Counted from the stretch's first letter, positions 1 to 17,500 are shown. The stretch is DNA of 64,000 nt from an uncultured virus (IMG/VR IMGVR_UViG_3300048576_000363) (IMGVR_UViG_3300048576_000363:62001-126000); one strand, 5' to 3'. The notes: a model not told the origin generated them from the letters alone. Numbers and translations: made by a program.

Positions 1-1692
1 GGATTGAATCCTTCAATTTTTATTCCTAGTGGTACAACAATAAGTGCTGCAACAAGTACAGACAGCTTACGTGCTGTGTATTGGTTGCCTAATGCTTCTA
101 CTGTTACTAATACGGGTGGTGCTGGATGTGCTATTGAAGATGAAGAATATACTGCGGGTACTGTATCTTCTACAGGAACTACAACAATAACAGGTTCTGG
201 GACTTCATGGAATTCAGTTGCTGGAAGAATAAACGCAGGGTCACGTATAGGTTTTGGCTCTACAAATCCTTTAAGTATTACAACATGGTACACAATTTCT
301 GCTGTTAACAGTACAACACAAATAACTTTAACCTCAGCACCTGCAACAATTCCTGCAGGAACTGCTTATTGCATTATAGACAACAGCATGCGAATTTCAT
401 ATGTTCTTGACACAGCAGGTAGAGTACACAAATATAATCTAAGATCTTCTTTAGGTACTATAACTTCAGGAAAAGCTTCTAATTACGCTGGCATTCAGTT
501 GTTAGCTACTGGTGTTCAAGCGTTGACAGGTACAATGCAAACTACTAATAATGGTAGATATGCAGTTTTACAAAGTGGTCCTGGAGCAAACATACCTTGT
601 TTATATTTTGTAACAACAACAAGAATATATAGATCTGTATTAACAGACATCACTTCTGGTTCGACTACATGGGCTTTTGATGCTATGGTAGAAGTTCCTG
701 CAGGTGGTGCAGCAACTTACCCAGTAACAGGCGCAATGTCGTCAGTAGAAGTTATTGACACTTTGAATAAACTTGTAATATCTACTACTCCAACAGTAGC
801 TGTAGGAAAAACTTATATTACTGGATACAAAACTGATGCTTCTCAATTTGACTACAATGTTTTTATTGACAATCATCAGCAAGATCAGTCAACAGCAGAT
901 AGTTCTGCAGCTATTATACCAAATCAAAACGGTCTAACATTTACAGCATGGTCTGAAAGTGGTGTTACGCACGTAATAAGACACCCAGCAGTAGGTACTG
1001 CTCCGACAGCTATTAATAATCAAATGTATGCTGTTCCAATAGGTGCTGATTGGGATTTTGCTGCAACAACTTTAAGCAGAATTATTACACCAAGAATAGC
1101 TACTCCTGAAGCTAACAATTTGAATACCGTTAGTGTCTTGTCTGCAAAATTTATTGGACAAAGTTCTTTGGGTATTCAACCTTTGCCTTATAGAGTATAT
1201 TGTCGTACTAGTGGAATAACAGACAATAGTGGTTCTTGGACTTTAATAGACGACTTAGGAAACATTTCAGGTGTAAGTGCTAGTACCCATGTACAGTTCA
1301 TGTTCGAATTTAAGACTATAAGTCAAGTTGTGCTCCCAGCAAGAATTTACGGTGTACATGTAAGTTACGATAATATAAGTCCTTTACCAAATTATCGAAG
1401 TGATGCAACAAGATCAAATGCAGCAAGTAAATTGTTTGCATTCAGATTTGTTACAGCTTTTGGAGAAACTGTCCCTGATCTTAGAATAAGAATCTATAAC
1501 GATATCACTGGTGGTTTATTAGTTGATGATAACACTGTAACATCTACAGGTACTTGGTCAAAATCTACTGATGGAGACAATTGGTCGACTTATAACACTA
1601 ATGATAAGACTAATGAAACAACTTACATTAGATATGCCCCTGCATCTATGGCATCAGGTGTAATAGCTCGTGCAGTAATAACAAGGATGTAA
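1..1692 (+). CDS. Phage tail/fibre-type structural protein, 5'-truncated by the window edge
   Basis: Open frame from the window start (the ATT start at 4 is probably an artefact). T/S/G-rich beta-type sequence with a YTAGTVS..TITGSGTSW segment typical of phage tail proteins. Confidence 0.55.
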   Translation, partial: GLNPSIFIPSGTTISAATSTDSLRAVYWLPNASTVTNTGGAGCAIEDEEYTAGTVSSTGTTTITGSGTSWNSVAGRINAGSRIGFGSTNPLSITTWYTISAVNSTTQITLTSAPATIPAGTAYCIIDNSMRISYVLDTAGRVHKYNLRSSLGTITSGKASNYAGIQLLATGVQALTGTMQTTNNGRYAVLQSGPGANIPCLYFVTTTRIYRSVLTDITSGSTTWAFDAMVEVPAGGAATYPVTGAMSSVEVIDTLNKLVISTTPTVAVGKTYITGYKTDASQFDYNVFIDNHQQDQSTADSSAAIIPNQNGLTFTAWSESGVTHVIRHPAVGTAPTAINNQMYAVPIGADWDFAATTLSRIITPRIATPEANNLNTVSVLSAKFIGQSSLGIQPLPYRVYCRTSGITDNSGSWTLIDDLGNISGVSASTHVQFMFEFKTISQVVLPARIYGVHVSYDNISPLPNYRSDATRSNAASKLFAFRFVTAFGETVPDLRIRIYNDITGGLLVDDNTVTSTGTWSKSTDGDNWSTYNTNDKTNETTYIRYAPASMASGVIARAVITRM

Positions 1693-1696
1693 TTGT

Positions 1697-1849
1697 ATGG
1701 ATGAACAAATAGCTGATAGTTTTATTATGTTGATTCCAGTTGAGTCTGGAGTTCCAAATACTATTGTTTCTTGTAATTTTGACATGGACATTGTTATTCC
1801 TAATGTTTTTTCTGGAGGCGGAGAAGTCTCTTCATTATTCTTTTTTTAA
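1697..1849 (+). CDS. Small hypothetical protein (50 aa), probably structural
   Basis: Read by hand: ATG 4 nt after the upstream stop, MDEQIADSF...GGGEVSSLFFF*. Below the ORF-track length cutoff. Confidence 0.55.
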   Translation: MDEQIADSFIMLIPVESGVPNTIVSCNFDMDIVIPNVFSGGGEVSSLFFF

Positions 1850-1874
1850 AGTTTTTTGCAAGTACTTATATTAT

Positions 1875-1912
1875 AAATCTTTTGCATAGTTACAAATTTA
1901 TGCAAAAGATTT
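1875..1912. terminator. 14-bp perfect inverted repeat, probable intrinsic terminator
   Basis: AAATCTTTTGCATA-10 nt loop-TATGCAAAAGATTT, running into T residues, between the structural genes and the GT cluster. Confidence 0.55.
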
Positions 1913-1938
1913 TTGTGCTATAGAATGATTAGGAAAAT

Positions 1939-2127
1939 ATGGAAATAAATATTTTAAAAGATAACGAAATTCTCATAATAGCTGAAACTGAATTTGAGAG
2001 AAGTTTTTGTACTCTTCTTGAAGGAAAAATTTTTGATACTACAGTTAAACGGGGTTTGTCTCCTGCTGATATTGTAGGGATTAAATTAACACCAAGACAA
2101 GAAAAGAAAGAAAAATGTCAAGCTTAA
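1939..2127 (+). CDS. Hypothetical protein
   Basis: AGGA SD before the ATG; overlaps the start of the next gene. Confidence 0.6.
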   Translation: MEINILKDNEILIIAETEFERSFCTLLEGKIFDTTVKRGLSPADIVGIKLTPRQEKKEKCQA

Positions 2128-3665
2128 GTTTTGCATTAATAGTAAAAAACGAAGAAGCAAGTCTACAAAAATGTTTAGACTCTATCAAATCTATTGCTGA
2201 CGAAATAATTATTGTTGACACTGGGTCAACTGATAGAACAAAAGAAATTGCATTACAATATACTAATAAAGTTTATGATTTCATTTGGATAGATGATTTT
2301 GCAGCAGCAAGAAATTTTGCTTTTAGTCTTTGTGAAAAAGAGTGGATTTTCTGGCTTGATGCTGATGATGAAATTCTACCTAAAGACAAAGAAAAAATAA
2401 AAAACTTAGATTTTTCTCCTGACAAAGAAGTATTTATTTGCAAATATCATTATTCACATGATCAGTTTGGTGTACCCGAATGCACTCTTGAACGTGAAAG
2501 AATTATTAAACGCTCTCTTAATTTAAAATGGGAAAAAGCAATTCACGAGTATATTGCTATTAATGGAAGAAACATAACAAGAACAGACATTGAAATCCAT
2601 CATTGGAAAAAACACGGAACATCAGAAAGAAACATACGAATTCTAGAGAAAATCGTAGAAAAAGACCAAGATCCAAGAAATCTATTTTATCTTGGAAAAG
2701 AGTATCTTGATTTTGGGAAAACAGAAGATGCAATCAAATATCTTGAAAGATTTGTTGTTTCAAATGGTTGGTGGGAAGATATATTTACAGCATACCAATT
2801 ACTTGCAAAAGCATATCTTTTCTTAAAAAACGAAAACAAATTTTTCGAAAACATCTTTCTATCTATCAAAATAGAGCCTCGTCGTGCAGAACCTTTTTAT
2901 GATATTGGAGATTTTTATTGTTCAAAAAGTGATTGGGCAAGAGCAATACATTATTATGAAATTTGTTTAAATACAAAACGTTCATCTGAGTTGATGTCAA
3001 CATTCTATCCTCAATATTATACATGGTTGCCAGCTCTTTCATTATGTAATTGCTATAACAATATTGGTGACATTCAAAAAGCTTATGAATACAATGAGTT
3101 GTTTCTAAAATTTAGACCAAATGATTCAAGAGGCATACACAATAGAGCTATTTTAAAAAATAGTCCACTAAGACTAATTAGAAAAGATGGACAAGGTAAA
3201 AAATTGAATCTTGGTTGTGGTAATAAACGGATGGAAGGATTTGTCAATTGTGACATTGTAGATATAAAAGAAGTCGATGAAATATTCAATTTTTATGAAA
3301 TACCCTATCAAGATAACACAATTTCTGAAATCTCTAGTGAACATGCGCTTGAACATGTTCCAAAAGAGAAAGCTAAACAAGCAATAAAAGAATGGTTTAG
3401 AGTTCTCAAACCAGGTGGAGTTCTTAATCTTTATATTCCAGATTTAGAACTATGTGCTCTTGGTTATGTGAATGGTGATAACAAAAGAACAGTAAATGGA
3501 TATCCTGAAAAAGAGTGGTATAAAATGACTTTGTTTGGTGCTCAAACAGCAGAAAATGGTAGTGATGCTGAACACCAGTTTCATTTGACAGGATTTTCTA
3601 AAAACGAAATCAGAGAGATACTTGAAGATGCAGGTTTTATTATAGATTACTTAAATAATTACTAG
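2115..3665 (+). CDS. GT2 glycosyltransferase + TPR repeats + class I SAM methyltransferase lacking its last beta-strand (fragment 1 of a split gene)
   Basis: LIVKNEE..IIVDTGSTD..DDFAAARN..WLDADD (GT2); helical TPR-like repeats; LNLGCG..HALEH..RVLKPGG..IPDL (Methyltransf_11-like). Stops at AGFIIDYLNNY. Confidence 0.85.
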   Translation: MSSLSFALIVKNEEASLQKCLDSIKSIADEIIIVDTGSTDRTKEIALQYTNKVYDFIWIDDFAAARNFAFSLCEKEWIFWLDADDEILPKDKEKIKNLDFSPDKEVFICKYHYSHDQFGVPECTLERERIIKRSLNLKWEKAIHEYIAINGRNITRTDIEIHHWKKHGTSERNIRILEKIVEKDQDPRNLFYLGKEYLDFGKTEDAIKYLERFVVSNGWWEDIFTAYQLLAKAYLFLKNENKFFENIFLSIKIEPRRAEPFYDIGDFYCSKSDWARAIHYYEICLNTKRSSELMSTFYPQYYTWLPALSLCNCYNNIGDIQKAYEYNELFLKFRPNDSRGIHNRAILKNSPLRLIRKDGQGKKLNLGCGNKRMEGFVNCDIVDIKEVDEIFNFYEIPYQDNTISEISSEHALEHVPKEKAKQAIKEWFRVLKPGGVLNLYIPDLELCALGYVNGDNKRTVNGYPEKEWYKMTLFGAQTAENGSDAEHQFHLTGFSKNEIREILEDAGFIIDYLNNY

Positions 3666-3675
3666 GAGGTATTCT

Positions 3676-3996
3676 ATTAATTTTTTTTTGTTTTTATGTA
3701 TTGTCACATTAACACATAACAAAGACAGTGTGTTAATTAAAACTCCTGTGTTCATTCAACAGCAAAGCAGCATAGAAAAAAACGATTGGTGTGTTTTTTC
3801 AGCATCAAAAGACTCTTCTTTTTTAAAAGTATCTTATCAAGAAAAATATGGTTTTGAAAAAACTATATTTTGTAAAGTTATTTTTGAAAATACAAAAACT
3901 GGTGAATATAAATGTATATCGCCAGAACTTGGTTGTTTAATTCTTCAAAAGTCAAACTTAAACTCTTTCAAAGTGACAGAAGTGAAAAATGAATAG
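3676..3996 (+). CDS. Hypothetical protein inserted between GT fragments 1 and 2; hydrophobic N-terminus
   Basis: The ORF track starts at TTG 3688. A perfect AGGAGGT SD (3664-3670) overlapping the upstream TAG favours the in-frame ATT at 3676 (MNFFLFLCIVTL...). Confidence 0.5.
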   Translation: MNFFLFLCIVTLTHNKDSVLIKTPVFIQQQSSIEKNDWCVFSASKDSSFLKVSYQEKYGFEKTIFCKVIFENTKTGEYKCISPELGCLILQKSNLNSFKVTEVKNE

Positions 3997-4426
3997 TTAT
4001 GGTACACCTTCAATAGAAATACGTGCATTCAAACCAGTCTCTGTAATTAAAATAGGTTGGATAGCACCTGAAAATTGGCTTGCTGCTCAAACACGTATAA
4101 GAGTTTTACGTGTCAACAAATGTCTTAGAAGTGTGGGATATCAATCTTTTATTGTTCAAGATGCACAAGAAATAATTGATAAAAATTATGATATTGCAAT
4201 AATTGGAAAAAGCTTTGATGAAAGCAGTTATAATAGTATCAAGTTACTTAAGCAACATAATAAAAAAGTAATATGTGATATATGCGAAGACGTTATTGGT
4301 TGGCCTTGGGTAAATGAAATTTTAAGAGATTCTGATAAGATTGTTTGCTGTTCATATAGACTTGAAGAAAAAGCCAAAACAGTAAACATGAACACTATAG
4401 TTATAGAAGATGCATTCGAAATATGA
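3989..4426 (+). CDS. Fragment 2: final methyltransferase strand + N-terminal Rossmann lobe of a GT-B glycosyltransferase
   Basis: Begins YGTPSIEIRAFKP (MTase beta7-like), then KIGWI..TRIRV..DIAII..VICDICED..IVCCS..VIEDAFE. Confidence 0.7.
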   Translation: MNSYGTPSIEIRAFKPVSVIKIGWIAPENWLAAQTRIRVLRVNKCLRSVGYQSFIVQDAQEIIDKNYDIAIIGKSFDESSYNSIKLLKQHNKKVICDICEDVIGWPWVNEILRDSDKIVCCSYRLEEKAKTVNMNTIVIEDAFEI

Positions 4427-4773
4427 GCGTTCCCATTAAATCATTAATCATAGATGCTTTTGCAAAAATTGAACGACAAGATCAAAGAGTAGTAAGAATA
4501 AGAGCAAATTATAGATCTGCGTATGCTATTAAACAGAGTTTCAACAGTGAATTTGACGAGATAACAAACGAACACTTACAACGTTTAGTTCCTAGTTGGT
4601 TTGGTTCTCTTTTTGGTGCACATATCTATATTGACAATGAGTTAGAACAAGTCGTTTTCGAAGGCGATCACGGCGCTACAACAAAACTTACATTTGAAAC
4701 AACAAAAAAAGAACCTGTCATTAAACTACAAGATACAAAAAGAAAATTCAAATTTATATTGGAGGAAAGATGA
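4423..4773 (+). CDS. Hypothetical protein (inserted between GT fragments 2 and 3)
   Basis: ATGA-coupled to both neighbours; no recognisable GT motifs. Confidence 0.65.
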   Translation: MSVPIKSLIIDAFAKIERQDQRVVRIRANYRSAYAIKQSFNSEFDEITNEHLQRLVPSWFGSLFGAHIYIDNELEQVVFEGDHGATTKLTFETTKKEPVIKLQDTKRKFKFILEER

Positions 4774-5483
4774 TGAATAACAAAGATACTTTTGTAGAAA
4801 AACTTGACGAATGCGGCGAAATCAAATATGAAATGTCTGAAGTTCATAGTAGAATTCTTGGTAAACTCAAAGCTGTCTATGGTCTTGTTTTTAAACGCGA
4901 AAAACGTGATTTTCTTTCTCTTAAAAACATGCAATATTTTAAAGGTGGTGTTGCTTCTCCAGATGCACGTCCAAGACTTCACGAAACTCTCGACACATTT
5001 ATCAATTTAGCTAATCATTATGAATTTCTTGGTGATGATGAATTAAAGTCTTACCTTGAAGCTCATGGCATTTCAATCACTATTACTACTCCTAATCTTG
5101 AAGATGGTCCTGTTGTTGTCGCAAAAGAAGATAACAAAGAGCTTGAAAGATCATGGCAATTCGCAATGTCTGGCGAAACAATGCCTGGAACAAAAAAAGA
5201 AGTACTAAACGCTATTCTTGATAGATCAATTGAAACACAAAAAGCAATTGAAGATAAAAAAGAAGAAATAGAGAAAAAAGCTGAAGATGTTAGTCTTGAA
5301 TGTCAAGTTAAAAAGCCTTTCTTTTTGAAAGCTGTAGCAATAAAAGTTCAAGAACTTAAGAAAAAATCTGTCGATAATGAACTTAAAAAAATAGAAGATG
5401 ATATTGAAGCATCAAATGATATCATTGGTATTTTTGACGCACTAAAAACAGTAGAAGCGCAAGAACAGGAAGAAAAAGCATAA
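4770..5483 (+). CDS. Hypothetical coiled-coil protein; C-terminal part resembles T4 DsbA/GapR-like dsDNA-binding proteins
   Basis: GGAGG SD. The helical pattern RSIETQKAIEDKKEEI..VKKPFFLKAVAIK is only a by-eye resemblance. Confidence 0.45.
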   Translation: MMNNKDTFVEKLDECGEIKYEMSEVHSRILGKLKAVYGLVFKREKRDFLSLKNMQYFKGGVASPDARPRLHETLDTFINLANHYEFLGDDELKSYLEAHGISITITTPNLEDGPVVVAKEDNKELERSWQFAMSGETMPGTKKEVLNAILDRSIETQKAIEDKKEEIEKKAEDVSLECQVKKPFFLKAVAIKVQELKKKSVDNELKKIEDDIEASNDIIGIFDALKTVEAQEQEEKA

Positions 5484-5485
5484 AA

Positions 5486-6760
5486 ATGAAATCTATCTAT
5501 TTTTTTGGATATGGAGGTTCTAGCGTCTTGTTAGAACCTTTAAGACCTATTATTGAAAAACTGGGTATGAAGCTCATTACTATCCATGAATGGGAAGATG
5601 CTGACATAAAATGGGAACTTTCAACATGGCTTGAGCATCTTAAAAAAGCTGATATTATAATTATACCTGCAAATTATGAAATACAGCCTTGTAAAAGCAA
5701 TACACGTTTGACACAAGCTCTTTCTTTAGGGAAACCCGTAATATGTTCTCCTCTTGATGCTTATTGGAAAGTAAATGAAAAATTTCCCGGGTGTTGCATT
5801 TTTGCGTCAAATCTTTCTGAATGGGAATTTCATCTTACAAGTTTAAGAGACGACGACAATTTATGTAAAATCATATCTGAAAGAGCTTTAAAAGCTGCCC
5901 AAAGTTATTCAATTGAAGAAATAACGAAAAAATGGATTAATGTTATTAATTATACTGATTCTTTAGATATTGTCATTCCTTCATATAACAATGTTGAATA
6001 TTTGAAGTTATGTATACAATCTATAAGAAAAAATACAAAATCATATAACATCATTATAAGTGATGCAGGTAGCAATGCTTCAACTTGGGAGTTTTATAGA
6101 ATTCTCAAAAATGTCACTATACTTGGTGAACAAGACAAAAGATTAAATTTTTCACAAACATGTAATGCTGGTATCAAGCACTCTACTTCAGAATATTTTG
6201 TTCTTTTAAATTCCGACACTATTGTTTCTAAAAATTGGGACGAAAATCTTCTCAAAAAAATGAAGGCTGATCAAAATCTAGCAGCTTGTGGTGTGCTTTC
6301 AAATTGTGATCGTTATTGGTTGCATGATGCTCCTGGTAAGCCTACTTATCCAATGAGTATTCCTGGTTTAGACCTTGTGCCAGGAATGAAAGCGTGTCAG
6401 TTAGAAGACAGACTAGAAAACTTATATAGTTTTATGGACAAATCAAATCAATCACACGCTGGGACTCTCGTTGAACAGGAATGGGTAGCGTACTATGCAA
6501 CCATGTTTAATAAAAAAATCTTTAACGAAGTTGGTTTGTTAGACCCAGGTTTTAAGAACGGGTGTGAAGATTTAGATCATTGTATTAGAATTAAAAAGAT
6601 GAAATATAAAATAGCGCAAGCTGTTGATAGTTTTGTTTTCCATTTTGGCGGAATTACTCGTGGAAGTTATGAAATTGAAGGTAGAGAACATTATCATCAA
6701 GAAGATAGAGAAAATCATGCTTACTTAAAACAAAAGTGGGGTGATTATCAAAAAGTGTAG
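5486..6760 (+). CDS. Fragment 3: C-terminal lobe of the GT-B glycosyltransferase + a GT2 domain
   Basis: IYFFGYGG..ADIIIIP..KSNTRLTQALSLGKPVICSP (GT-B C-lobe); DIVIPSYN..LLNSD..GCEDLD..VFHFGG (GT2). Confidence 0.85.
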   Translation: MKSIYFFGYGGSSVLLEPLRPIIEKLGMKLITIHEWEDADIKWELSTWLEHLKKADIIIIPANYEIQPCKSNTRLTQALSLGKPVICSPLDAYWKVNEKFPGCCIFASNLSEWEFHLTSLRDDDNLCKIISERALKAAQSYSIEEITKKWINVINYTDSLDIVIPSYNNVEYLKLCIQSIRKNTKSYNIIISDAGSNASTWEFYRILKNVTILGEQDKRLNFSQTCNAGIKHSTSEYFVLLNSDTIVSKNWDENLLKKMKADQNLAACGVLSNCDRYWLHDAPGKPTYPMSIPGLDLVPGMKACQLEDRLENLYSFMDKSNQSHAGTLVEQEWVAYYATMFNKKIFNEVGLLDPGFKNGCEDLDHCIRIKKMKYKIAQAVDSFVFHFGGITRGSYEIEGREHYHQEDRENHAYLKQKWGDYQKV

Positions 6761-7475
6761 TGTAGATAAACATGGACCAATCATAGAAGAATATTCTGTT
6801 CAAGCTAAGATTCATCCTGACATTTCAGGTACACACTGTTGGATTTTGTCAGCTAAAAGCTATTGCAGTTTTTCAAAATATAAAAAGATTTTTTGGGAAA
6901 AAGCAAAAGGAATTAGACCCAAAAATTTATTTCTTTGTCATAAATGCGATAACATAAACGGGTTTTGCGTAAATCCTGATCATCTTTTTTTGGGCACAGC
7001 AAAAGACAATTCACAAGATGCATCAAAAAAGAAAAGAATGCACGGTTCATATTCTGAAGATGTAAAAGATAAAAAAAGGGGCAAAAAACTTTCTGAAGAA
7101 ACTAAACAAAAAATTTCAAAAAAAGTGAACAAATTTTATAATGAAAATATTGATGCAAAAATAAATACTTCAAGAGCAACACAATTATCAATGTATGACG
7201 ACTTTGGCAATGTAAAAAGAAAATATAAAAATAGTTTAGGAATACAAAATATTTGTTTAAAAAACAACAAATATCAAGTTAGTGCAACAAAAAACTTAAA
7301 TAACGAAAACGAATCGACAAGTTTGTTAAACACATTAAAATGTTTTGATAATGATTTGAAATTTAAACCACCTAAAAAAATATTTCAAGTATCTGTATAT
7401 AAAAATTTTTTTAATTTAAACGAAGCAATTACTTACAAAGAAACTTTATTACCAATTATTCACAAAACATTATGA
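6741..7475 (+). CDS. Free-standing HNH homing endonuclease with NUMOD3 and AP2-like C-terminus
   Basis: HCW..LCHKCDN..CVNPDHLFLGTAKDNSQD (HNH_3 type); GKKLSEETKQKIS (NUMOD3). Confidence 0.85.
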   Translation: MIIKKCSVDKHGPIIEEYSVQAKIHPDISGTHCWILSAKSYCSFSKYKKIFWEKAKGIRPKNLFLCHKCDNINGFCVNPDHLFLGTAKDNSQDASKKKRMHGSYSEDVKDKKRGKKLSEETKQKISKKVNKFYNENIDAKINTSRATQLSMYDDFGNVKRKYKNSLGIQNICLKNNKYQVSATKNLNNENESTSLLNTLKCFDNDLKFKPPKKIFQVSVYKNFFNLNEAITYKETLLPIIHKTL

Positions 7476-8545
7476 AAAAATCTATTTGTTTTTTTTCAGG
7501 ACCCTCTTTTGAAAAATGGAACTATAATTCTTGTGAAACATCAGGAATTGGAGGTTCAGAAACTTGGGCTATAAAATTGTCTGAAGAACTTGCTACATTA
7601 GGTTACAGAGTTTTGAATTTCGCAGACTGTTCAATTGAAGGTAAATTCAATGGTGTCGAATGGTTTCATTTTTCTAAACTCACTGAATTTATAGAGTACA
7701 ACTGGTTTGACTATTTTATTTCATCAAGAACAACAGATGTTTTTCGTTTGAATATTAGAGCAGGTAAAAAATTCACAATCATTCATGATATTTGGTTGTC
7801 ATCAGAAAATACAATTCCTTATCAAGAAAAAGTCGATAAATTTCTTGTTCTTTCTGAATGGCATAAACAGTTTGTAAGTCAACATCATGGATTGTCTTTA
7901 GATCGTTTAATTATGACAACTAACGGTATTGATCTAAAAAGATACGAAAAGTCAGTCGAAAGAAATCCTTATAGATTACATTGGAGTTCAAGTCTAGATA
8001 GAGGTCTTGACACTCTTCTCTATTTATTTGACTTTATTAAGCAAAGTGTCCCAAAATTAGAATTACATATTTTTTATGGAATAGATAATTGGTTAAAAGT
8101 TGCTAAATATAAACATGGTGAATCTGAGAAAATAAGAAAACTCCAAGAAGCTATGAAAAAACCTGGTGTTTTTTATCATGGAAGAGTTGGCCAAGAACAA
8201 CTTGCCGAAGAACAACTTAAAGCTTCATTATGGGCATATCCAACTGATTTTGAAGAGACAAATTGTATTACTGCAATAGAATGTCAAGCTGCAGGTTTAC
8301 CAGTTATTGCTTCAAATTACGCAGGATTACAAACAACAGTTAATAGTTCTGGTATTTTATTAGGGCAAGGCAGAAAAGGTGAATCATCACTTTTAGATTA
8401 TAGACTCGAATTTGTTTCTAAATGCATAGAGTTATTAACAAATAAAGCTCTATGGCAAGAATGGTCGCAAAAAAGCCTCGAAAATGCTAGAAAATTTGAG
8501 TGGAGCAAAATTGCTAAACAGTGGTCAGAACAAATTTTGTGTTAA
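7472..8545 (+). CDS. GT4-like (GT-B) glycosyltransferase (possible fragment 4)
   Basis: GIGGSET..SSSLDRGL..YPTDFEETNCITAIECQAAGLPVI, with the E-x7-E motif. Confidence 0.85.
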   Translation: MKKSICFFSGPSFEKWNYNSCETSGIGGSETWAIKLSEELATLGYRVLNFADCSIEGKFNGVEWFHFSKLTEFIEYNWFDYFISSRTTDVFRLNIRAGKKFTIIHDIWLSSENTIPYQEKVDKFLVLSEWHKQFVSQHHGLSLDRLIMTTNGIDLKRYEKSVERNPYRLHWSSSLDRGLDTLLYLFDFIKQSVPKLELHIFYGIDNWLKVAKYKHGESEKIRKLQEAMKKPGVFYHGRVGQEQLAEEQLKASLWAYPTDFEETNCITAIECQAAGLPVIASNYAGLQTTVNSSGILLGQGRKGESSLLDYRLEFVSKCIELLTNKALWQEWSQKSLENARKFEWSKIAKQWSEQILC

Positions 8546-8567
8546 ATTTATTCTGACCACTTAATTT

Positions 8568-11500
8568 TTAAACCCCTACTCTTAGAGATTGATCAGATGT
8601 ATTTAACCAAACTTCCCCTGCAACAGCTCCAGCATTTGCTTGCGAAGTACCTGTTTTTATACCACTCAAAAACATATTACCTCGAATAGTTAGAGTGTTA
8701 TTTATAATATTATGTGTATGATTATTTTGAGTATCTAGTGTTTTAAGATACCCAGATGTCATCACTCTAGTATTTGTTCCACTATAACCTACTGCTACAA
8801 AAATCCCATTTTCATAACAAATCGATGCCCAAGAGTTATCTATCACAGATGTCTTTGATGTCCAAGTAATACCATCAGGAGATGTCATTACTCTATTACT
8901 TGTACCTGAATTTGACACAGCTACAAACAAACCATTGCCATAACAGACTGACACCCACTGATTATTCACAGCAGCTGACCTACTTGTCCAAGTGATCCCA
9001 TCAGGAGACGTCATCACTCTATCAGTACCGTTATAAGCTATAGCTACAAATAAACCGTTTCCATAACATATGTCATACCAATCATTGTCTGCTGCTGAAG
9101 TCTGTATAGTCCAAGTAATACCATCAGGCGAAGTCATTACTCTATTTCCTGTACCTGTTAAAGCTACAGCTACGAACAAACCATTACCATAACATACTTT
9201 ATACCAGTTGTTGTCAACAGGATTTGTTCTTGATGTCCAAGTGATACCATCAGGAGATGTCATCACTCTATTTCCTGTACCATTACTAGAGACAGCTACA
9301 AACAAACCATTGCCATAACATACACCGTCCCACTGATTTGCTGCTGCAGGTGTTACTAATGACCAACTTATACCATCATAAGAGATCATTGTTCTGTTAC
9401 TTGCGCCAGAATGTGCAACTGCAACAAAAACGCCATTTCCATAACAGACATCATACCAGTTGTTGTCAGCAGCTGACGTTCTTATTGTCCAGTTAACTCC
9501 ATCAGATGAAGTCATTACTCTGTTACTTGTACTTGATGATGCTACAGCTACAAACAAGCCATTTCCATAACATACACCATACCATAAGTTATCAGCAGCA
9601 GATGTTCTTGTTACCCAGTCATGTGCTGGATTTACTTTTAATCCAGAAAAATTCATGCTTCCAGTGATATTTTGTGTGCCTGTTATAGTTTGAATACCAG
9701 TAATGTTTTGCAAACCTGAAACAGTTTGAGTTCCTACTATATTTTGTGAACCTATCATGAGATCATGATTATGATTAGTCTGTTCCTCAAGAACATCCAT
9801 AGCACCAGATGTCATCACTCTATCACCAGTTCCTGAATAAGCTACGGCTACAAACATGCCTCTGCCGTAACATACTCCTCTCCAGTTATTATTTGCAGCT
9901 GATGTTCTTAAAGACCAAGTGATACCATCAGGAGATGTCATTACACGATTACCTGTTCCACTATAAGCAACAGCTACATACATTCCTTTTCCATAACACA
10001 CAGATGCCCAGCTATTGTCAGCTGCACTAACTCTTGATGTCCAAGTAATACCATCAGGAGATGTCATCACTCTATTTTTAACCCCTGAAGTTGAAACTGC
10101 TACAAAAAGACCATTTCCATAACATAAACCTCTCCAGTTATTATCAGCTGCACTTGTTCTAATAGTCCAAGTAATACCATCAGGAGATGTCATCACTCTG
10201 CTATTTGTTCCTGTTATTGATGTAGCTACAAACAACCCATTACCATAACATACAGCAAACCAATCATTATTTGCAGCACTTGTTCTAAGAGTCCAAGTAA
10301 TACCATCAGGAGATGTCATCACTCTATTTCCTGTGCCTGAATAAGCTACAGCTACAAAAAGACCTTCACCATAACAAATTGAAGTCCAATCATTATTTGC
10401 TGCACTCGTTCTACTTGTCCAAGTGATACCATCAGGAGATGTCATCACTCTGTTTCCTGTTCCAGTGTATGATACAGCTACAAATAATCCATTACCATAA
10501 CATACTGATATCCACTCGTTGTTAACTGGGTTTGTTCTTATAGTCCAATTAACTCCATCAGAAGAAGTTAATATTCGGTTATCTAAACCATCAACACTAG
10601 CCACAGCTACAAATATTCCATTGCCATAGCAGACGCCAAGCCATTGATTGTCTACTATAGATGCTCTTGTTGTCCATTTTATTCCGGGCATCATATCTAT
10701 ATTAGAAACAGTAAGACTTCCTGTTATGTCTAAATCATTATTGATTAACTTGTGACTATGTTTATTTTGCTCGTCTATAGTTTTTACAGCTCCAGAAGTC
10801 ATTGCTCTATTGCCCGTACCTGTATAAGATACTGCAACAAAACATCCATTTCCATAGCACACATTTACCCAACCATTGTCTACAGCACTTCTTCTAATTG
10901 TCCAAGTAATACCATCAGGAGACGTCATCACTCTATTTCCAACACCCGAATAAGCAATAGCTACAAACAAACCTTCTCCATAACAAACATTATACCAGTT
11001 GTTGTCAACAGGCGTTGTTCTGATTGTCCAATCAACACCATTTGGAGATGTCATTACGCGATTACTTGTCCCACTATAAGAAACAGCTACAAATAATCCA
11101 TCACCATAACACACAGATATCCAAGAATTGTCAACAGGTGTCGTTTGTATTGTCCAATTGATACCATCAGGAGATGTCATTACACGATTATTTGTTCCTG
11201 TTTCAGATACTGCTACAAATAAACCATTTCCATAACATACACCTACCCAACTGTTATCTACAGGTGTTGTTCTTAAAGTCCAATCAATACCATTAGGAGA
11301 AGTCATCACTCGATTTAGTGTTCCTGTGTAAGAAACAGCTACAAATAATCCATTACCATGACACACAGAAAACCAATAGTTATCAGCTGCTGAAGATCTA
11401 CTTGTCCAAACAATACCATCAGGAGACGTCATTACTCTATTGCCAGTTCCAGAATTAGATACTGCAACAAACAAACCATTGCCATAACAGACTTTATACC

Positions 11501-14500
11501 AGTTGTTGTCTGCTGCTGATGTTCTACTTGTCCAGTTAGCGCCATCAGGCGAAGTCATTACTCTATTTCCTGTACCTGTTATAGATGTAGCTACAAACAA
11601 ACCGTTTCCATAACATACTCCATACCAGCTATTGTCAACAGGTGTTGTTCTTGATGTCCAGCCTGTACCCGACAATGTAACGTTTTTACCAGAAACTACT
11701 AGATCCCCTTCAATGTCAACATCATTATTGAAAATACTATGACTATGATTGTCTTCAACATCTATTTGTTTTACAAAACCTGATGTCATCACTCTACCTG
11801 TAGTTCCTGAACCAGCTACTGCAACAAACATTCCATTGCCGTAACATGCACCATACCATAAAAGGTCTGCAGCAGTTATTCTTGATGTCCAGTTGATTCC
11901 ATCAGGTGACGTCATTACTCTACTACCTGTTCCTGAATAAGCTACAGCTACAAACATTCCATCACCATAACAAATACTATAAAATGCGACGTCAATAGGT
12001 GTTGTCCTTACTGTCCAATTGATACCATCAGGAGATGTCATTATACGATTATTTGTCCCTGATGATGCAACAGCAACAAACAAACCTTTTCCATAACATA
12101 CTGCTTGCCAGTTATTATCGACAAGTGTCGTTTGTATAGTCCAAGTAATACCATCAGAAGAAGTCATCACACGATTATTTGTTCCTGTTGCTGCAACTGC
12201 AACAAAAAGACCGTTTCCATAACATAGTCCTGCCCAACTATTATTAGCTGCTGATGTTCTAGTTGTCCAAACAATACCGTCTGGAGACGTCATCACTCTA
12301 TTTCCTGTTCCAGATATTGCAACAGCTACAAACAATCCATTACCATAACAAATATTATACCATTGATTAGATGCTGCACTTGTTCTGTTTGTCCAAGTAA
12401 TACCATCAGGAGACGTCATCACTTGATTACCTGTTCCAGTGTATGATACAGCTACAAACAATCCGTTACCATAACATACAGCATACCATCCTATGTCTAC
12501 AGGATTATATCTTGTTGTCCAGTTGACTCCATCAGGGGATGTCATTATTCTGTTGTTTGTGCCTGTACCCTGATAAGCAACAGCTACAAATAATCCATTA
12601 CCATAACAAACTTTTGACCAATCAGCATCAACAGATGAATCTCTTAATGTCCATTCTATACCAGGAACAACTTCTAAATCTGATACATTAAGACTCCCTC
12701 GTACATTAAGATCATTGTTTATAAAATTGTGAGTATGATCATACTGTTCATCTATCTCTTCTATAAAACCAGATGTCATGACTTTATCGTTAGTTCCTGA
12801 GAAAGAAACAGCTACAAACATCCCGTTACCATAACATACAGCATACCAGTTGTTAGCAACTGTAGTTGTTCTTGTTGTCCAATTGATACCATCAGAAGAT
12901 ATCATTACTCTATTACCAGAACCTGTTTGAGCTACAGATACAAAAAGTCCATTACCATAACAAACTCCTAACCACTGGTTGTCTACAGGCGATGTTCTTA
13001 TTGTCCAATCTATGCCATTAGGTGAAGTCATTACTCTATTACCCGTACCACTATTAGCTACAGAAACAAATAGTCCATTTCCATAACATACATCAATCCA
13101 TGCATTATCTACAGGAGTTGTTCTTAAGGTCCAAGTAATACCATCAGGAGATGTCATCACTCTGTTGGGAACTCCTGTACCATTAGCAACAGCTACAAAT
13201 AAACCATTACCATAACAGACTGAAACCCAAGGGTAATCTGCAGGTGTTGTTCCAATAGTCCAAGTGATGCCATCAGGAGACGTCATCACCCTATTTCCTG
13301 TTCCCGATGCTGCAACAGCTACAAACAATCCATTACCATAACAAACTTTATACCAGTTATTATCTGTAGGTGTTGCTCTAGCTGTCCAATTAATACCATC
13401 AGGAGACGTCATAGCTTTATTTGGAGGTGATGAAGTACTAGCAACAGATACAAACAAACCATTACCATAACAAACTGATCCCCAACTATTATCTGCTGCT
13501 GAAGTTCTTGATGTCCAGTTTACGCCATCAGGAGATGTCATTACTCTATTACCAGTTCCAGAGTTAGATGTTGCAACAAATAAACCATTTCCATAACATA
13601 ATCCATAAAAATTATTTGTTGGTGTTGTTCTACTTACCCAATCATATCCAGCTATAACATTACCAACACCTGTTGCACCTTGTTGTCCACCAGAAGGTCC
13701 TGTCACTCCCTGAAGTCCTGTTGCACCCTGTGGTCCACCTGATGGACCTGTTGTTCCTTGTAATCCTGTAAAACCTCTTACACCTGTTATACCAAATAAT
13801 CCTGTGAAACCTTGAGGCCCTGTAATACCTTGCCCAGTAACACCTTGAACTCCTGTCGAACCCCGAAGTCCAGTTGCTCCTTGAGGACCACCAAATGGGC
13901 CTGTCACACCTTGAATACCAGTTGTTCCTCTTAAGCCTGTAATTCCTTGTAGACCTGTCTCACCAGTTATTGCAAGCCCAGTAAAACCCTGTTCCCCAGT
14001 AATACCTTGTACTCCAGTTTGTCCTGTTATTGAAAGTCCAGTAATACCTTGTGAACCAGTTGTTCCTTGAAGTCCAGTAACACCCTGTTGTCCTCCAGTT
14101 GGCCCTGTAACACCTTGAAATCCTGTAAATCCTCTTAAACCAGTGATTCCTTGAGTACCTGTACCTTGTATTCCAGTTACTCCTTGTATTCCAGTTATAC
14201 CTTGTGTACCATTAAGACCTGTTATACCTTGAATTCCTGTTTGTCCCTGAATTCCATAACCTGTAGTTCCTTGACTACCAGTAACTCCTTGTGAACCATT
14301 TAAACCTGTTGAACCCTGAAGACCTTGACTACCTGTGACTCCTTGAGTACCTGTCTGTCCTTGACTGCCTTCTAATCCTGTAAAGCCTTGTTCTCCTGCT
14401 AAACCAGTTGTTCCTTGAACTCCAGTCACTCCTTGAAGTCCTTCCAACCCTGTCAAACCTTGAGATCCAGCAGTTCCTTGTGCACCTGTTGCTCCTTGAA

Positions 14501-17500
14501 GTCCTTCAATACCTGTTATTCCTTGTTGACCTTCAAGACCTGTTATTCCTTGGAGACCAGTAGATCCTTGAAGACCTTGTGCACCTGTAGTCCCTTGGAT
14601 TCCATTAAGTCCAGTAGTACCCTGATTACCATTTAACCCTGTCAATCCTTGAAGTCCAGTATCTCCTTGAATGCCTTGTGGTCCTTCAAGACCTGTGTTT
14701 CCCTGAATTCCATTTTGACCTGTAGTACCTTGGATTCCAATTAAACCAGTCTCTCCTTGAGTACCATTTAACCCTGTCAATCCTTGGAGACCTGTGATAC
14801 CCTGATTACCGTCTAAACCTGTAAAGCCTTGTATGCCAATACCTGTAGATCCTTGATTTCCTTCAGCACCAGTTGCACCTTGTAAACCATTTAAGCCAGT
14901 TGCTCCTTGTTGTCCAGTTTCTCCTTGAATACCTTGATTACCATCAAGACCATTTAATCCTGTAGAACCTTGAACTCCTTCAAGTCCAGTAGTTCCTTGA
15001 TTACCTTGAGCACCTGCTAATCCTGTTTGACCTTGTATACCATCTAAACCTGTAATACCCTGTAAACCATTTGAACCAGTAACACCTTGAGTTCCATTTT
15101 GACCTGTCACACCTTGTGTTCCGTTCAAACCTGTGTTTCCCTGAATTCCTTCTAACCCAGTTATTCCTTGCAGACCTATTGTTCCAGTTTGGCCTTGTAA
15201 TCCTGTTAAACCTTGAATTCCAGTAGTACCTTGCAAACCATCTAAACCTGTGCTTCCTTGTGTTCCCTGTAAACCAGTAGAACCTTGAGTACCAACTAAA
15301 CCAGTTGTGCCCTGAATTCCTGTACTACCTTGTTCACCTTGAGCTCCTTCTAAACCTGTAGCTCCTTGATCACCTTGTAAACCTTGTACTCCAGTAACAC
15401 CCTGTGTACCATCAAGACCATTTAATCCTGTTAAACCTTGCGATCCAGTACTACCTTGTTCTCCCTGTAAACCATTAAGTCCTGTTTGGCCTTGTGTACC
15501 TGTCTCACCTTGATTACCAAGTAAACCAGTGACACCTTGTGAACCCGTAACTCCTTGATTACCATTAAGACCACTTAAACCTGTTTCACCCTGTAGACCA
15601 AGTCCTGTAGAGCCCTGAAGTCCTTGTGCTCCTGTTTCACCTTGAAGACCTGTTACGCCAGAAGTTCCTATAGTTCCTGTACTACCTTGAGAACCTGAAA
15701 CACCTGTGTTTCCTTGAATTCCAGTAACACCCTGTGTTCCATTTTCTCCTTGCAAACCAGTAAAACCTTGAAACCCTGTGACACCTTGAGTTCCTTTTAC
15801 AGCAAGACAAAAGTTTGTTTTAGAATTATCTGAAAAAGAATTGCTATGATTGATATAAGTTAAAGAAGGAAATCTAACATAACCTGTTGCGTCTTCAGCA
15901 TCAGCATTTATAGAATAACTAGCAATTCTTGAAGCATCTTTTTCATCTTGTATATAGATGTAAGAACCTGCTTTACCTAAAAAAAGTAAGAAACTAGAAA
16001 TATCTACTGCAGAATCATTTAAGTTGTCGACAAATGCTGCTGTAACCAAAGACAAATCTGAACTATTAAGTTTAAAATTTCCCGAACCTGGATCAGAATC
16101 TGAGGTATTATTAGCAAAACGATATAAAGCACAAGAAGCTGACACACCATCAAGACCTTGAGTACCTGTAACTCCTTGAATACCTGTGTTTCCTTGTGAT
16201 CCCTGTAAACCTGTTGAACCTTGAACTCCATCAACTCCTGTAATACCTTGAGTACCTTCTACACCAGTTGTTCCTTGTACTCCATTTATCCCAGTGTCAC
16301 CTTGCAGACCTTGTAAACCCGTAACACCCTGAAGCCCTTGAGAACCTGTATTTCCTTGAATTCCTGTTGCACCATTTAATCCTGTAAAACCTTGTAATCC
16401 TTGTCCAGTTTCGCCTTGAATTCCTGTTATTCCTCTTAATCCTGTCTGTCCTTGTCCCCCAGAAACTCCTGTTGAACCTTGTAGACCATTTAATCCTGTC
16501 AATCCTTGAGAACCAGTGTGACCTTGAACTCCTTCAAGTCCAGTAGTTCCTTGATTACCTATTAAACCTGTTTGACCTTGTGTTCCAGTTTGACCTTGTT
16601 GTCCCGTAGTACCTTGACTACCACTTAATCCTGTCAAACCTTGTAAACCTGTAGATCCTTGATCGCCTATCTCGCCTTGTGAACCTATTCCAGTTTGACC
16701 TTGTAAACCTGTTGTACCACGCAAACCTGTAACACCTTGTTCTCCTTGATATCCTGTAGATCCTTGAATACCAGTATTACCTTGACTTCCTGTAGCACCT
16801 TGAGGACCATTAAGACCTGTTATACCTTGAAGTCCTGTATTACCCTGTGCACCAGTCAATCCTTGTACGCCTTGAGAACCAGAAAGACCTGTAGTTCCTT
16901 GTTGACCATTTAAACCTGTGAATCCCTGTGAACCTGTAGATCCTTGTAATCCTGTAATACCTTGGTTACCTATAGTACCCTGTAATCCTGTTTGTCCTTG
17001 AAGGCCTGTCTGACCCTGTGAACCTGTGCTACCTTGAAGACCGTCAAAACCTGTTGTACCTTGTAATCCAGTATTTCCTTGAAGTCCTGTCTCTCCCTGA
17101 ACTCCAGCAGTGCCTTCTAAACCTGTAACACCTTGTATTCCTGTATCACCATTTGAACCTTGTAATCCTGTCACTCCCTGCAAACCAGTTGCACCAACAC
17201 CGGAAAGACCTGTAGTACCCTGAGCACCAGTTTCTCCCTGTTGTCCTTCTAAACCTGTTGCACCTTGAGTTCCTGCTTCACCTTGTAGACCTGTCTCTCC
17301 TTGTATTCCTGTATCACCATTGTTTCCAGAGACACCAGTTACACCTTGAAGACCAGTTTGACCAACTCCAGCAAGTCCTGTAGCTCCTTGAGCTCCAGTA
17401 ATCCCTTGTAAATTGCCTAAACCAGTAATATTACCAGTGATAGCCAAATTACCTTCTAAAAATAAATCTCCTGTTACAGTCAAACCACCGTTCAATTGAT

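Follow-up and report, generated by a model that had tools for sequence, protein, structure and literature searches.

We analysed a 64,000-nucleotide (nt) stretch of DNA from an uncultured virus (IMGVR_UViG_3300048576_000363, 62001-126000), referred to here as the window, and focused on eight open reading frames (ORFs) of the + strand that lie head to tail and tightly packed between positions 2115 and 8545 (Table 1), where a preliminary description of the same DNA had also placed them. Four of these ORFs, pieces 1 to 4, encode parts of a glycosyltransferase and methyltransferase protein and are separated at three junctions, J1 to J3, by the inserts I1, I2 and I3 and by a gene resembling HNH homing endonucleases. 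We found that the four pieces were colinear with one continuous ORF of 1,300-1,750 amino acids (aa) in relatives, and they are probably the fission products of one multi-enzyme glycosylation protein, associated with HNH genes, made by separate translation and joined in a non-covalent assembly. A viral record of 130.6 kb (~65% complete) includes the window, and a 210.9-kb record contains the region at 100% identity. The identical arrangement was present in other assemblies (loci L013, L014 and L035), and because of this recurrence the split layout is not an assembly artefact.

Table 1. The eight ORFs of the split locus, in window coordinates
Feature	Position	Strand	Length and content
Piece 1	2115..3665	+	516 aa; GT2, TPR repeats, class I S-adenosylmethionine (SAM) methyltransferase without its last strand
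I1 insert	3688..3996	+	102 aa; TTG start uncertain; no function assigned; small conserved gene, found in gap 1 of some relatives
Piece 2	3989..4426	+	145 aa; methyltransferase strand beta7 and GT-B-like N-lobe (Rossmann-like)
I2 insert	4423..4773	+	116 aa; no function assigned; fast-evolving; ATGA overlap with the piece 2 stop
I3 insert	4770..5483	+	237 aa; all-helical (model); no function assigned; strong purifying selection
Piece 3	5486..6760	+	424 aa; GT-B C-lobe (aa 1 to ~150, ..KSNTRLTQALSLGKPVICSP..) and GT2 (aa ~160-420)
HNH homing-endonuclease-like gene	6741..7475	+	244 aa; GTG start
Piece 4	7472..8545	+	357 aa; GT4-type GT-B glycosyltransferase

Each of the four pieces has its own ATG. 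Start and stop codons overlap in ATGA-type fashion at 4423, 4770 and 7472, the overlap is 8 nt at 3989 (I1/piece 2) and 20 nt at 6741 (piece 3/HNH), and I3 and piece 3 are separated by 2 nt (5484-5485). Promoter and terminator scans remained at chance level and revealed no terminator-like site between the pieces, which is a weak test. Pfam analysis identified in piece 1 a GT2 domain (5.8e-22), which was SunS-like at a low score, together with TPR and Methyltransf_11/23 matches; the glycine-rich SAM motif LNLGCG of the methyltransferase is present. Piece 3 matched GT2 (1.5e-19) and, weakly, the C-terminal tail of Glycos_transf_1 at aa 49-135 (0.0091). Piece 4 matched Glycos_transf_1 (2.2e-9) and contains the stretch ..FEETNCITAIE.., which we take to be an E-x7-E motif. 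No family match was found in Pfam, PHROG or NCBIfam for piece 2, I1, I2 or I3.

The preliminary description had read the pieces as one protein of the order GT2-TPR-methyltransferase-GT-B-GT2-GT4, cut before the last methyltransferase strand, between the lobes of a GT-B enzyme and between GT2 and GT4, and had suggested looking for contiguous single-ORF homologues. These were found. When the single 1575-aa ORF of locus L004 was used as the BLASTP reference, piece 1 aa 4-360 aligned with L004 9-368 (31%, 2e-43), piece 2 aa 20-145 with 408-541 (33%, 8e-15), piece 3 aa 6-424 with 561-999 (48%, 8e-137) and piece 4 aa 3-354 with 997-1369 (34%, 1e-67), with each match adjoining the next in the same order as in the window. 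Viral contigs were also scanned with a motif taken from GT2 of piece 3, a choice neutral to splitting, and this gave 22 loci, comprising 2 from the same phage, 1 distant locus and 19 relatives; all detected domains lay in one open frame in 17 of the 19, and the remaining two, L019 and L031, were split. Furthermore, a phmmer search of 1.84 billion cluster representatives with piece 2 as query yielded 70 hits, and six of these (P0020, P0025, P0026, P0045, P0046 and P0058) were single proteins of 1436-1755 aa with the domain order GT2-TPR-methyltransferase-N-lobe-C-lobe-GT2-GT4, exactly as had been proposed. Other fused homologues lacked the internal methyltransferase or carried a C-terminal one (L004/P0001 and P0064). 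Against an annotated phage collection, the sole blastn match was 126 nt long and at chance level, and tblastn with piece 2 (ORF3989) gave nothing. Collectively, these data demonstrated that contiguous, uninterrupted homologues of the split gene exist.

The first break, J1, cuts a class I SAM methyltransferase in its beta6/beta7 hairpin, in agreement with the preliminary reading. Fused homologues read ..GF.ID...NYDGWGTPS.EIRA.KP.. without interruption; in the window, piece 1 closes with ..AGFIIDYLNNY just past beta6, and after its stop codon the sequence resumes in piece 2 as MNSYGTPSIEIRAFKP. The end of piece 1 (..IDYLNNY) thus corresponds to residues that run directly into the start of piece 2 (YGTPSIEIRA..) in the fused proteins. 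The structural reference was an AlphaFold2 model of a natural fused homologue, P0007 (predicted local distance difference test (pLDDT) 87.9, predicted template modelling score 0.84), in which residues 150-160 form a helix, residues 163-172 and 175-183 form strands, and a Rossmann-like domain begins at residue 190. Solved class I methyltransferases aligned to model residues 18 to 184-189, often to their own C-termini, with Z scores of 12-15.4 (best match 3sm3_A: Z 15.4, root-mean-square deviation 3.4, 154 residues aligned). Since these structures reach past strand 175-183, piece 1 stops after the penultimate strand and piece 2 opens with the last. Beta7 is formed by residues 1-18 of piece 2 (MNSYGTPSIEIRAFKPVS, nt 3989-4042), and the N-lobe occupies residues ~20 to 145. 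In class I methyltransferases, which are built on a seven-stranded sheet, the last strand, beta7, lies between beta5 and beta6. Hence the C-terminus of piece 1 and the N-terminus of piece 2 together have the make-up of a class I SAM-dependent methyltransferase fold.

The distribution of the strand among relatives followed that of the methyltransferase. All 19 representatives with an upstream methyltransferase matched piece 2 from residue 8 or earlier, and 22 of the 27 without one matched it only from residue 14 or later. The ends at J1 were kept (piece 1 ..NY followed by a stop, piece 2 opening with MNSY/MNCW-GTPS) in L019, L035, L036, L037, L042, L043, L048, L061 and L062, relatives whose N-lobes share 44-68% identity. 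In L062 the two J1 ORFs stand in frame without an insert (..ENY TAA ATG AAT..). We also found that P0024 (start MSITLYDGYGTPS) is sister to the J1-fused P0036 on a quick N-lobe tree (approximate likelihood-ratio test (aLRT) 99), a pairing that indicates a separate fission at J1.

We then predicted the complex of piece 1 aa 345-516 with piece 2, as the preliminary description had suggested for the first two fragments, alongside three controls. The interaction prediction score from aligned errors (ipSAE) was 0.86 for the pair compared to 0.24 for the best control; 116 of 157 solved complexes and 2 of 215 mismatched pairs attained that mark, counts that are only approximate here because alignments of our own were used. 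The runs agreed in at least 97% of contacts, and the partner pLDDT was at least 79. Predicted contacts joined piece 2 residues 4-18 to piece 1 residues 431-443 and 507-516, and within this stretch residues 9-15 of piece 2 made trans contacts with residues 436-441 and 508-510 of piece 1. In the models, this supports a placement of the piece 2 strand between beta5 and beta6 of the truncated methyltransferase.

J2 separates the two lobes of a GT-B-like enzyme, also as proposed: the end of piece 2 (..VIEDAFEI) and the start of piece 3 (MKSIYFFGYGG) flank a linker of ~19 residues in the fused protein, which is removed at the break. The C-lobe in piece 3 is recognisably GT-B. A profile of fused homologues matched the C-lobe of GT4/Gtf3-type structures (2jjm at 8.6e-9), hhalign aligned the C-lobe with the GT4 piece at probability 95 over 77 columns, and the homologue of this lobe in L031 matched Glycos_transf_1 at 6.5e-19. 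Directly before the C-lobe in fused homologues, residues 190-304 of the P0007 model form alternating strands and helices, and an Atlas lead for the N-lobe was Glyco_transf_4 / Gtf3_N with a score of 0.88, which lies below 0.9 and is a lead only; the N-lobe assignment, based on position, the predicted alpha/beta structure and this weak lead, is put forward as a tentative one. Of 59 cluster representatives, 31 continued into the C-lobe, and in 24 the protein ended no more than 12 residues from where the N-lobe ends. On the quick N-lobe tree (131 columns, unrooted and weakly resolved) the window sat in a set of 31 rows that were all J2-split where known (aLRT 91), and further J2-split groups stood elsewhere. 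L031, which lies in an otherwise fused group, was split exactly between the lobes by a single HNH gene (phrog_374, 5e-44).

Other arrangements of the lobes were seen in the same searches. In P0010 (284 aa) and P0015 (405 aa) the C-lobe precedes the N-lobe in one polypeptide, an order that would be a GT-B circular permutation or a fusion across a rearranged gene pair. A small complete GT-B of ~300 aa with both lobes (L054 10004-10933 and L055 6256-7185, 23-30% identical) sits ~1.6 kb downstream of a J2-split N-lobe gene, and the expected C-lobe partner was not found between that gene and the small GT-B.

J3 lies between GT2 and GT4 and is occupied in the window by the HNH gene, which matched PHROG endonuclease families at 1.2e-13 (phrog_1872) and 3.2e-11; its HNH_3/NUMOD3 match was sub-threshold (HNH_3 6.6e-4, below the Pfam cut-off). 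At this junction, a same-strand endonuclease gene fills the gap with no flanking intron or intein. J1 and J2 of the window hold no endonuclease, but those of relatives do (L036 at J1, L019 and L031 at J2). The junction HNH genes belong to three PHROG families (phrog_1872 type, phrog_99 AP2-HNH and phrog_374), and homologues of one HNH family occupy J1, J2 or J3 in different genomes. In L019, for example, a homologue of the window HNH gene sits at J2 and a different AP2-HNH gene at J3. Furthermore, the position of J3 itself varies. In L019, L035 and L043, piece 3 stops ~25 residues earlier than in the window (..GGISR.SYE..) and piece 4 opens with M(M)SKY.QED..NHIYLKEKYDKKT, a segment that in the window belongs to piece 3 as its tail. 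L035 and the window share 95-100% identity in pieces 1-3 and I1-I3 (~99% overall outside the J3 module), compared with 85% in GT4 and only 47-50% in the HNH gene, which is frameshifted in L035 (L035 6492-7233 versus window 6741-7475). Such a difference would fit a recent exchange of the module or a co-conversion tract; together with HNH homologues sitting at different junctions in different genomes, it hints indirectly that the endonuclease may cleave the uninterrupted allele. Two DNA contig sets contained only an L035-like strain with the J3 segment replaced, and no joined form was seen in them, bins without cover being left uninterpreted. A search for extra copies of the HNH gene and I3 in G000 and G001 found one copy of each. 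The data showed that J3 is undergoing ongoing turnover.

The gaps act as landing sites, and what they contain varies among relatives. The comparison includes loci from a metagenome scan that returned 31 loci and favoured J1-split forms through one of its two patterns, MNSY[GS]TPS[IL]. Gap 1 holds I1 in the window, L035, L042, L048 and L061, and an opposite-strand I1 in L049; the homologues in L042, L048, L061 and L049 are 45-57% identical. Elsewhere gap 1 contains an HNH gene (L036), an unrelated 68-aa ORF that matched no family in NCBIfam, Pfam or PHROG (L019), or nothing (L043 and L062). Gap 2 holds I2 and I3 in the window, L035 and L043; I3 alone in L040, L048 and L049; I2, I3 and an HNH gene in L019; and a methyltransferase with other genes in L036. 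In a sister group fused at J1, gap 2 is empty in L044 and filled with 0.3-2 kb of unrelated genes in L039, L041, L045, L056 and L059. The preliminary description had found it puzzling that two of the three inserts are not endonucleases, and this is largely explained by the same gaps holding HNH genes, other genes or nothing in relatives.

The two inserts of gap 2 differ in their conservation. I2 homologues were detected in L043 (31%, 5e-11) and, when aligned, in L019 (32%), and were absent from L040, L048 and L049. I3 had 30 homologues with 51-94% identity, none of them named, and occupied gap 2 in seven of the eight clade relatives with downstream DNA, L036 having no I3 within 2 kb. Its dN/dS was 0.14 against L019 and 0.13 against L043. 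Locus scans that used I2 or I3 as the only protein recovered the same phage and no other. The I3 model is all-alpha (pLDDT 77.6); Foldseek returned 0 matches in the PDB at E<=0.001, and the only leads from an Atlas search were of the Phage_DsbA type and scored 0.84, which shuffled proteins also reach.

Some of these relatives carry further genes of note. A similar stand-alone methyltransferase (~191 aa) is the first gene of the inter-lobe gap in L036 (1145-1720) and L041 (5016-5594), and L041 also has a 111-aa ORF bearing a DGNHR motif. I3 homologues (P0076 and P0077), including the one on the 424,144-bp L019/L038 contig of the closest split relative, are labelled 'Candidatus Nanoarchaeia archaeon' metagenome-assembled genome in one public source. 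The contig resembles a very large phage, and the archaeal binning may be wrong.

To compare selection on the pieces and on the HNH gene, dN/dS was estimated by the NG86 method. Against L019 the ratios, which are rough at dS values of 0.9-1.8, were 0.12, 0.24, 0.20 and 0.16 for pieces 1, 2, 3 and 4, respectively, and 0.78 for the HNH gene; values against L043 were similar. The four pieces are under purifying selection and the HNH gene is not. The SAM-motif, DxD-like and E-x7-E residues were kept, as was the donated strand in stand-alone N-lobe proteins, where T6, P7, S8 and A13 were invariant in 21 sequences. All four frames were intact in the window, L013, L014, L035, L019 and L043.

These results suggest how the locus may have arisen and how it may work. 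An ancestral protein of large phages, GT2-TPR-class I methyltransferase-GT-B-GT2-GT4, would have been broken at J1, J2 and J3 in the window clade, the breaks being associated with free-standing HNH homing endonuclease genes, and the opened gaps would then have served as landing sites whose content (HNH genes, I1, I2, I3, other genes or nothing) turns over. The pieces would be co-transcribed and, judging from the overlaps, translation of each would begin at a start codon of its own. Piece 2 would use its first 18 residues to supply beta7 between beta5 and beta6 of the piece 1 methyltransferase, a donation that would both complete the fold and anchor piece 2 on piece 1. A two-subunit GT-B enzyme resembling Alg14/Alg13 would arise from the piece 2 N-lobe and the piece 3 C-lobe, and piece 4, predicted to be a complete GT4 enzyme, may act free or loosely bound. 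Assembly in trans is what we infer, indirectly, from the conserved boundaries, selection and the predicted complex.

Several points weigh against this explanation. A model in which I3 is a pure passenger leaves its constant position and strong constraint unexplained. We infer from L031, L036, L019 and the two J3 positions that J1 and J2 of the window lineage were caused by HNH genes, and these may instead have been later arrivals. The fused-first direction depends on the unrooted, weakly resolved tree and on the logic of a break inside a fold, and many forks of the N-lobe tree are open, so that the number and order of fission events are uncertain. The N-lobe was unmatched in Pfam, PDB-profile and hhalign searches, only the C-lobe being matched. 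The ipSAE value may only echo the prediction model's memory of single-chain methyltransferase folds, the dN/dS ratios come from dS values near saturation, the cluster representatives are metagenomic and some are perhaps cut by contig ends, and the bias of the metagenome scan makes it unusable for frequencies. I3 was seen only in the inter-lobe gap of the window clade, and a bolder proposal would make the locus a new kind of modular assembly, with the beta-strand acting as a split-protein tag, I3 as a scaffold or regulator replacing the linker, and the gaps as a cargo-exchange site serviced by HNH genes; we regard this as a tentative idea and a rather doubtful one.

The pieces might also work separately without reassembly, the methyltransferase being dead or dispensable, the strand a relic and the N-lobe inert or repurposed. 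GT2-TPR, GT2 and GT4 are each complete and could function on their own, the internal methyltransferase is absent from 27 of the 59 representatives and so is dispensable for the family, and 5 of those 27 still match the strand region. We nevertheless consider separate action unlikely, given the invariant strand residues of stand-alone N-lobe proteins, the conserved methyltransferase motifs and low dN/dS of piece 1 as a whole, and the complex prediction, which supports complementation; moreover, the active site of a GT-B enzyme sits between its two lobes, and both lobes are constrained. A further view would hold the split state to be ancestral and the long single ORFs to be products of fusion. 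Fusion of adjacent genes is frequent in evolution, J2-split forms are common (24/59), and the tree leaves room for this order, yet J1 cuts a beta-hairpin within a single fold, where no gene boundary can originally have lain. J3 is broken at either of two points, each with an HNH gene beside it, fused forms occur in all deep branches with the window J2-split group as one nested set, and L031 is split within an otherwise fused group with its HNH gene exactly in the gap. Ancestral splitting is accordingly quite improbable.

Three interruptions in one gene and the loss of the inter-lobe linker could be read as decay, the pieces being what is left of a gene that insertions had inactivated. The intact frames in six loci, the contrast between dN/dS of 0.12-0.24 in the pieces and 0.78 in the HNH gene, and boundaries that are unchanged over 44-68% identity make decay very unlikely. 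The preliminary description had left two routes to a working product, self-assembling fragments or rejoining at the level of RNA or translation. Phage genes interrupted by endonucleases are often intron- or intein-containing, and relatives do carry contiguous inteins in copies of this gene: in frame in the GT4 domain of L031 (9980-13762, ..FSETFC/C..HN/C.., Pfam Intein_splicing and Hint_2) and in the first GT2 of L032 (7154-12427, with LAGLIDADG_3). L017, L024 and L033 have an in-frame insertion at the same GT4 site as L031, and P0005, P0030 and P0033 have insertions of similar size to these inteins. The gene is a hotspot for selfish elements. In the window, an Rfam scan of 1500-9000 gave 0 matches at E<=1, and the inserts overlap the neighbouring starts and stops with no spare non-coding sequence, so that an intron core could not fit. 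Pfam detected no Hint or intein family in any window ORF, and there are no intein residues at the piece ends, which abut in fused homologues with at most ~6 extra residues and therefore leave no room for intein halves. The known translational bypass, in phage T4 gene 60, spans 50 nt (bioRxiv 10.1101/2022.08.31.505936), far less than the ORF-filled gaps of 323-1059 nt, and gap content differs among relatives, with some gaps empty. Rejoining by group I/II intron splicing, split-intein trans-splicing or ribosomal bypassing is thus scarcely credible. The missing Rfam match, intron room and intein halves, together with the gapless relatives, therefore indicate that the pieces are made separately and act as subunits, and of the two routes it is trans assembly that is favoured, by the pieces' own ATGs, the gapless relatives, selection and the complex prediction.

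The neighbouring genes provide a hint of the substrate. Converging on the cluster from the - strand, at 8568-21908, is a 4446-aa ORF with long collagen-like G-x-y tracts and dozens of ~45-aa repeats (..VCYGNGLFVAV...NRVMTSPDGI.WT.R..), which may be a fibre modified by the adjacent enzymes. Directly upstream of the cluster, a 562-aa ORF (4-1692, + strand) showed a weak tail-fibre match (phrog_1591, 2.4e-6), placing the glycosyltransferases among structural genes. The split protein has weak similarity to SunS-, Gtf3- and SdgA/B-type protein glycosyltransferases. Speculatively, this similarity and the adjacent 4446-aa protein suggest virion protein glycosylation, in which the assembled enzymes would glycosylate a protein such as the collagen-like fibre and methylate the sugar.

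A literature search found no description of the split gene or of the fused family, and the available sections of PMC12619734 treat phage glycosyltransferases and endonuclease-cargo pairing in general terms only. The locus belongs to a natural series in which one multi-enzyme protein occurs fused or with one, two or three splits; break points recur across it, one of them within a Rossmann-type fold, and mobile elements are still at the breaks. The series suggests beta-strand complementation as a means of neutralising fragmentation, provides testable material on how proteins survive fission and how homing-endonuclease gaps become cargo sites, and bears on what a large, widespread and undescribed phage glycosylation protein modifies.

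Related arrangements are known. The two Rossmann-like GT-B lobes of Alg13/Alg14 are separate polypeptides that form an active enzyme. Alg13/Alg14 is a heterodimeric UDP-GlcNAc transferase (PMC9527342). The window would share with it a GT-B-type enzyme whose lobes reside on separate polypeptides. Alg13/Alg14 is a eukaryotic endoplasmic reticulum enzyme with no detectable sequence relation to the pieces, whereas the split described here would be derived from fused relatives, with the C-lobe fused to GT2 and the N-lobe carrying a methyltransferase strand. Naturally split DNA methyltransferases such as M.AquI are DNA C5-methyltransferases divided between large sub-domains. They likewise build a Rossmann-fold SAM methyltransferase from two polypeptides, but the window places only the last strand of a small-molecule-type class I enzyme on the second polypeptide. 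In the T4 gene 60/gene 39 topoisomerase, the account in bioRxiv 10.1101/2022.08.31.505936 likewise describes a phage enzyme gene disrupted in association with a mobile element; the window locus, in which each piece has a start codon, neither needs nor plausibly uses bypass. In the 'fractured genes' of Dassa et al. (2009, PMC2677866), as set out in the available text, a conserved enzyme gene found mainly in phages and metagenomes is broken in two, its halves separated by a free-standing endonuclease gene, and split inteins flanking that gene ligate the protein. Such split-intein halves distinguish those genes from the present pieces, whose ends carry no intein sequence, inteins being found only in relatives and elsewhere in the gene.

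The closest known system is nrdA/mobE of phage Aeh1, the 'genes in pieces' nrdA-a, mobE and nrdA-b, whose protein fragments assemble non-covalently through tails in the account of Crona et al. (2010, PMC3045599). In both cases a free-standing mobile endonuclease gene lies inside a conserved phage enzyme gene and the parts are same-strand ORFs, and in Aeh1 non-covalent assembly restores function without splicing, as would be expected of the window locus. Work by Friedrich et al. in 2007 is reportedly a further source on Aeh1 nrdA/mobE. The differences are several. The window has three breaks and four pieces of a glycosylation multi-enzyme, and two of its gaps contain genes that are not endonucleases. 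The Aeh1 tails are essential, whereas the pieces described here have no long insertion-derived tails and only ~3-6 new end residues; one break falls in a beta-hairpin, so that the strand itself is the predicted tether, and the breaks are old and common to many lineages. The Aeh1 NrdA paradigm would thereby be extended from a nucleotide-metabolism enzyme broken once to a glycosylation machine in four pieces, and what is new relative to genes in pieces is the number of pieces, a break within a fold with a donated strand, breaks that recur across the family, and changing cargo.

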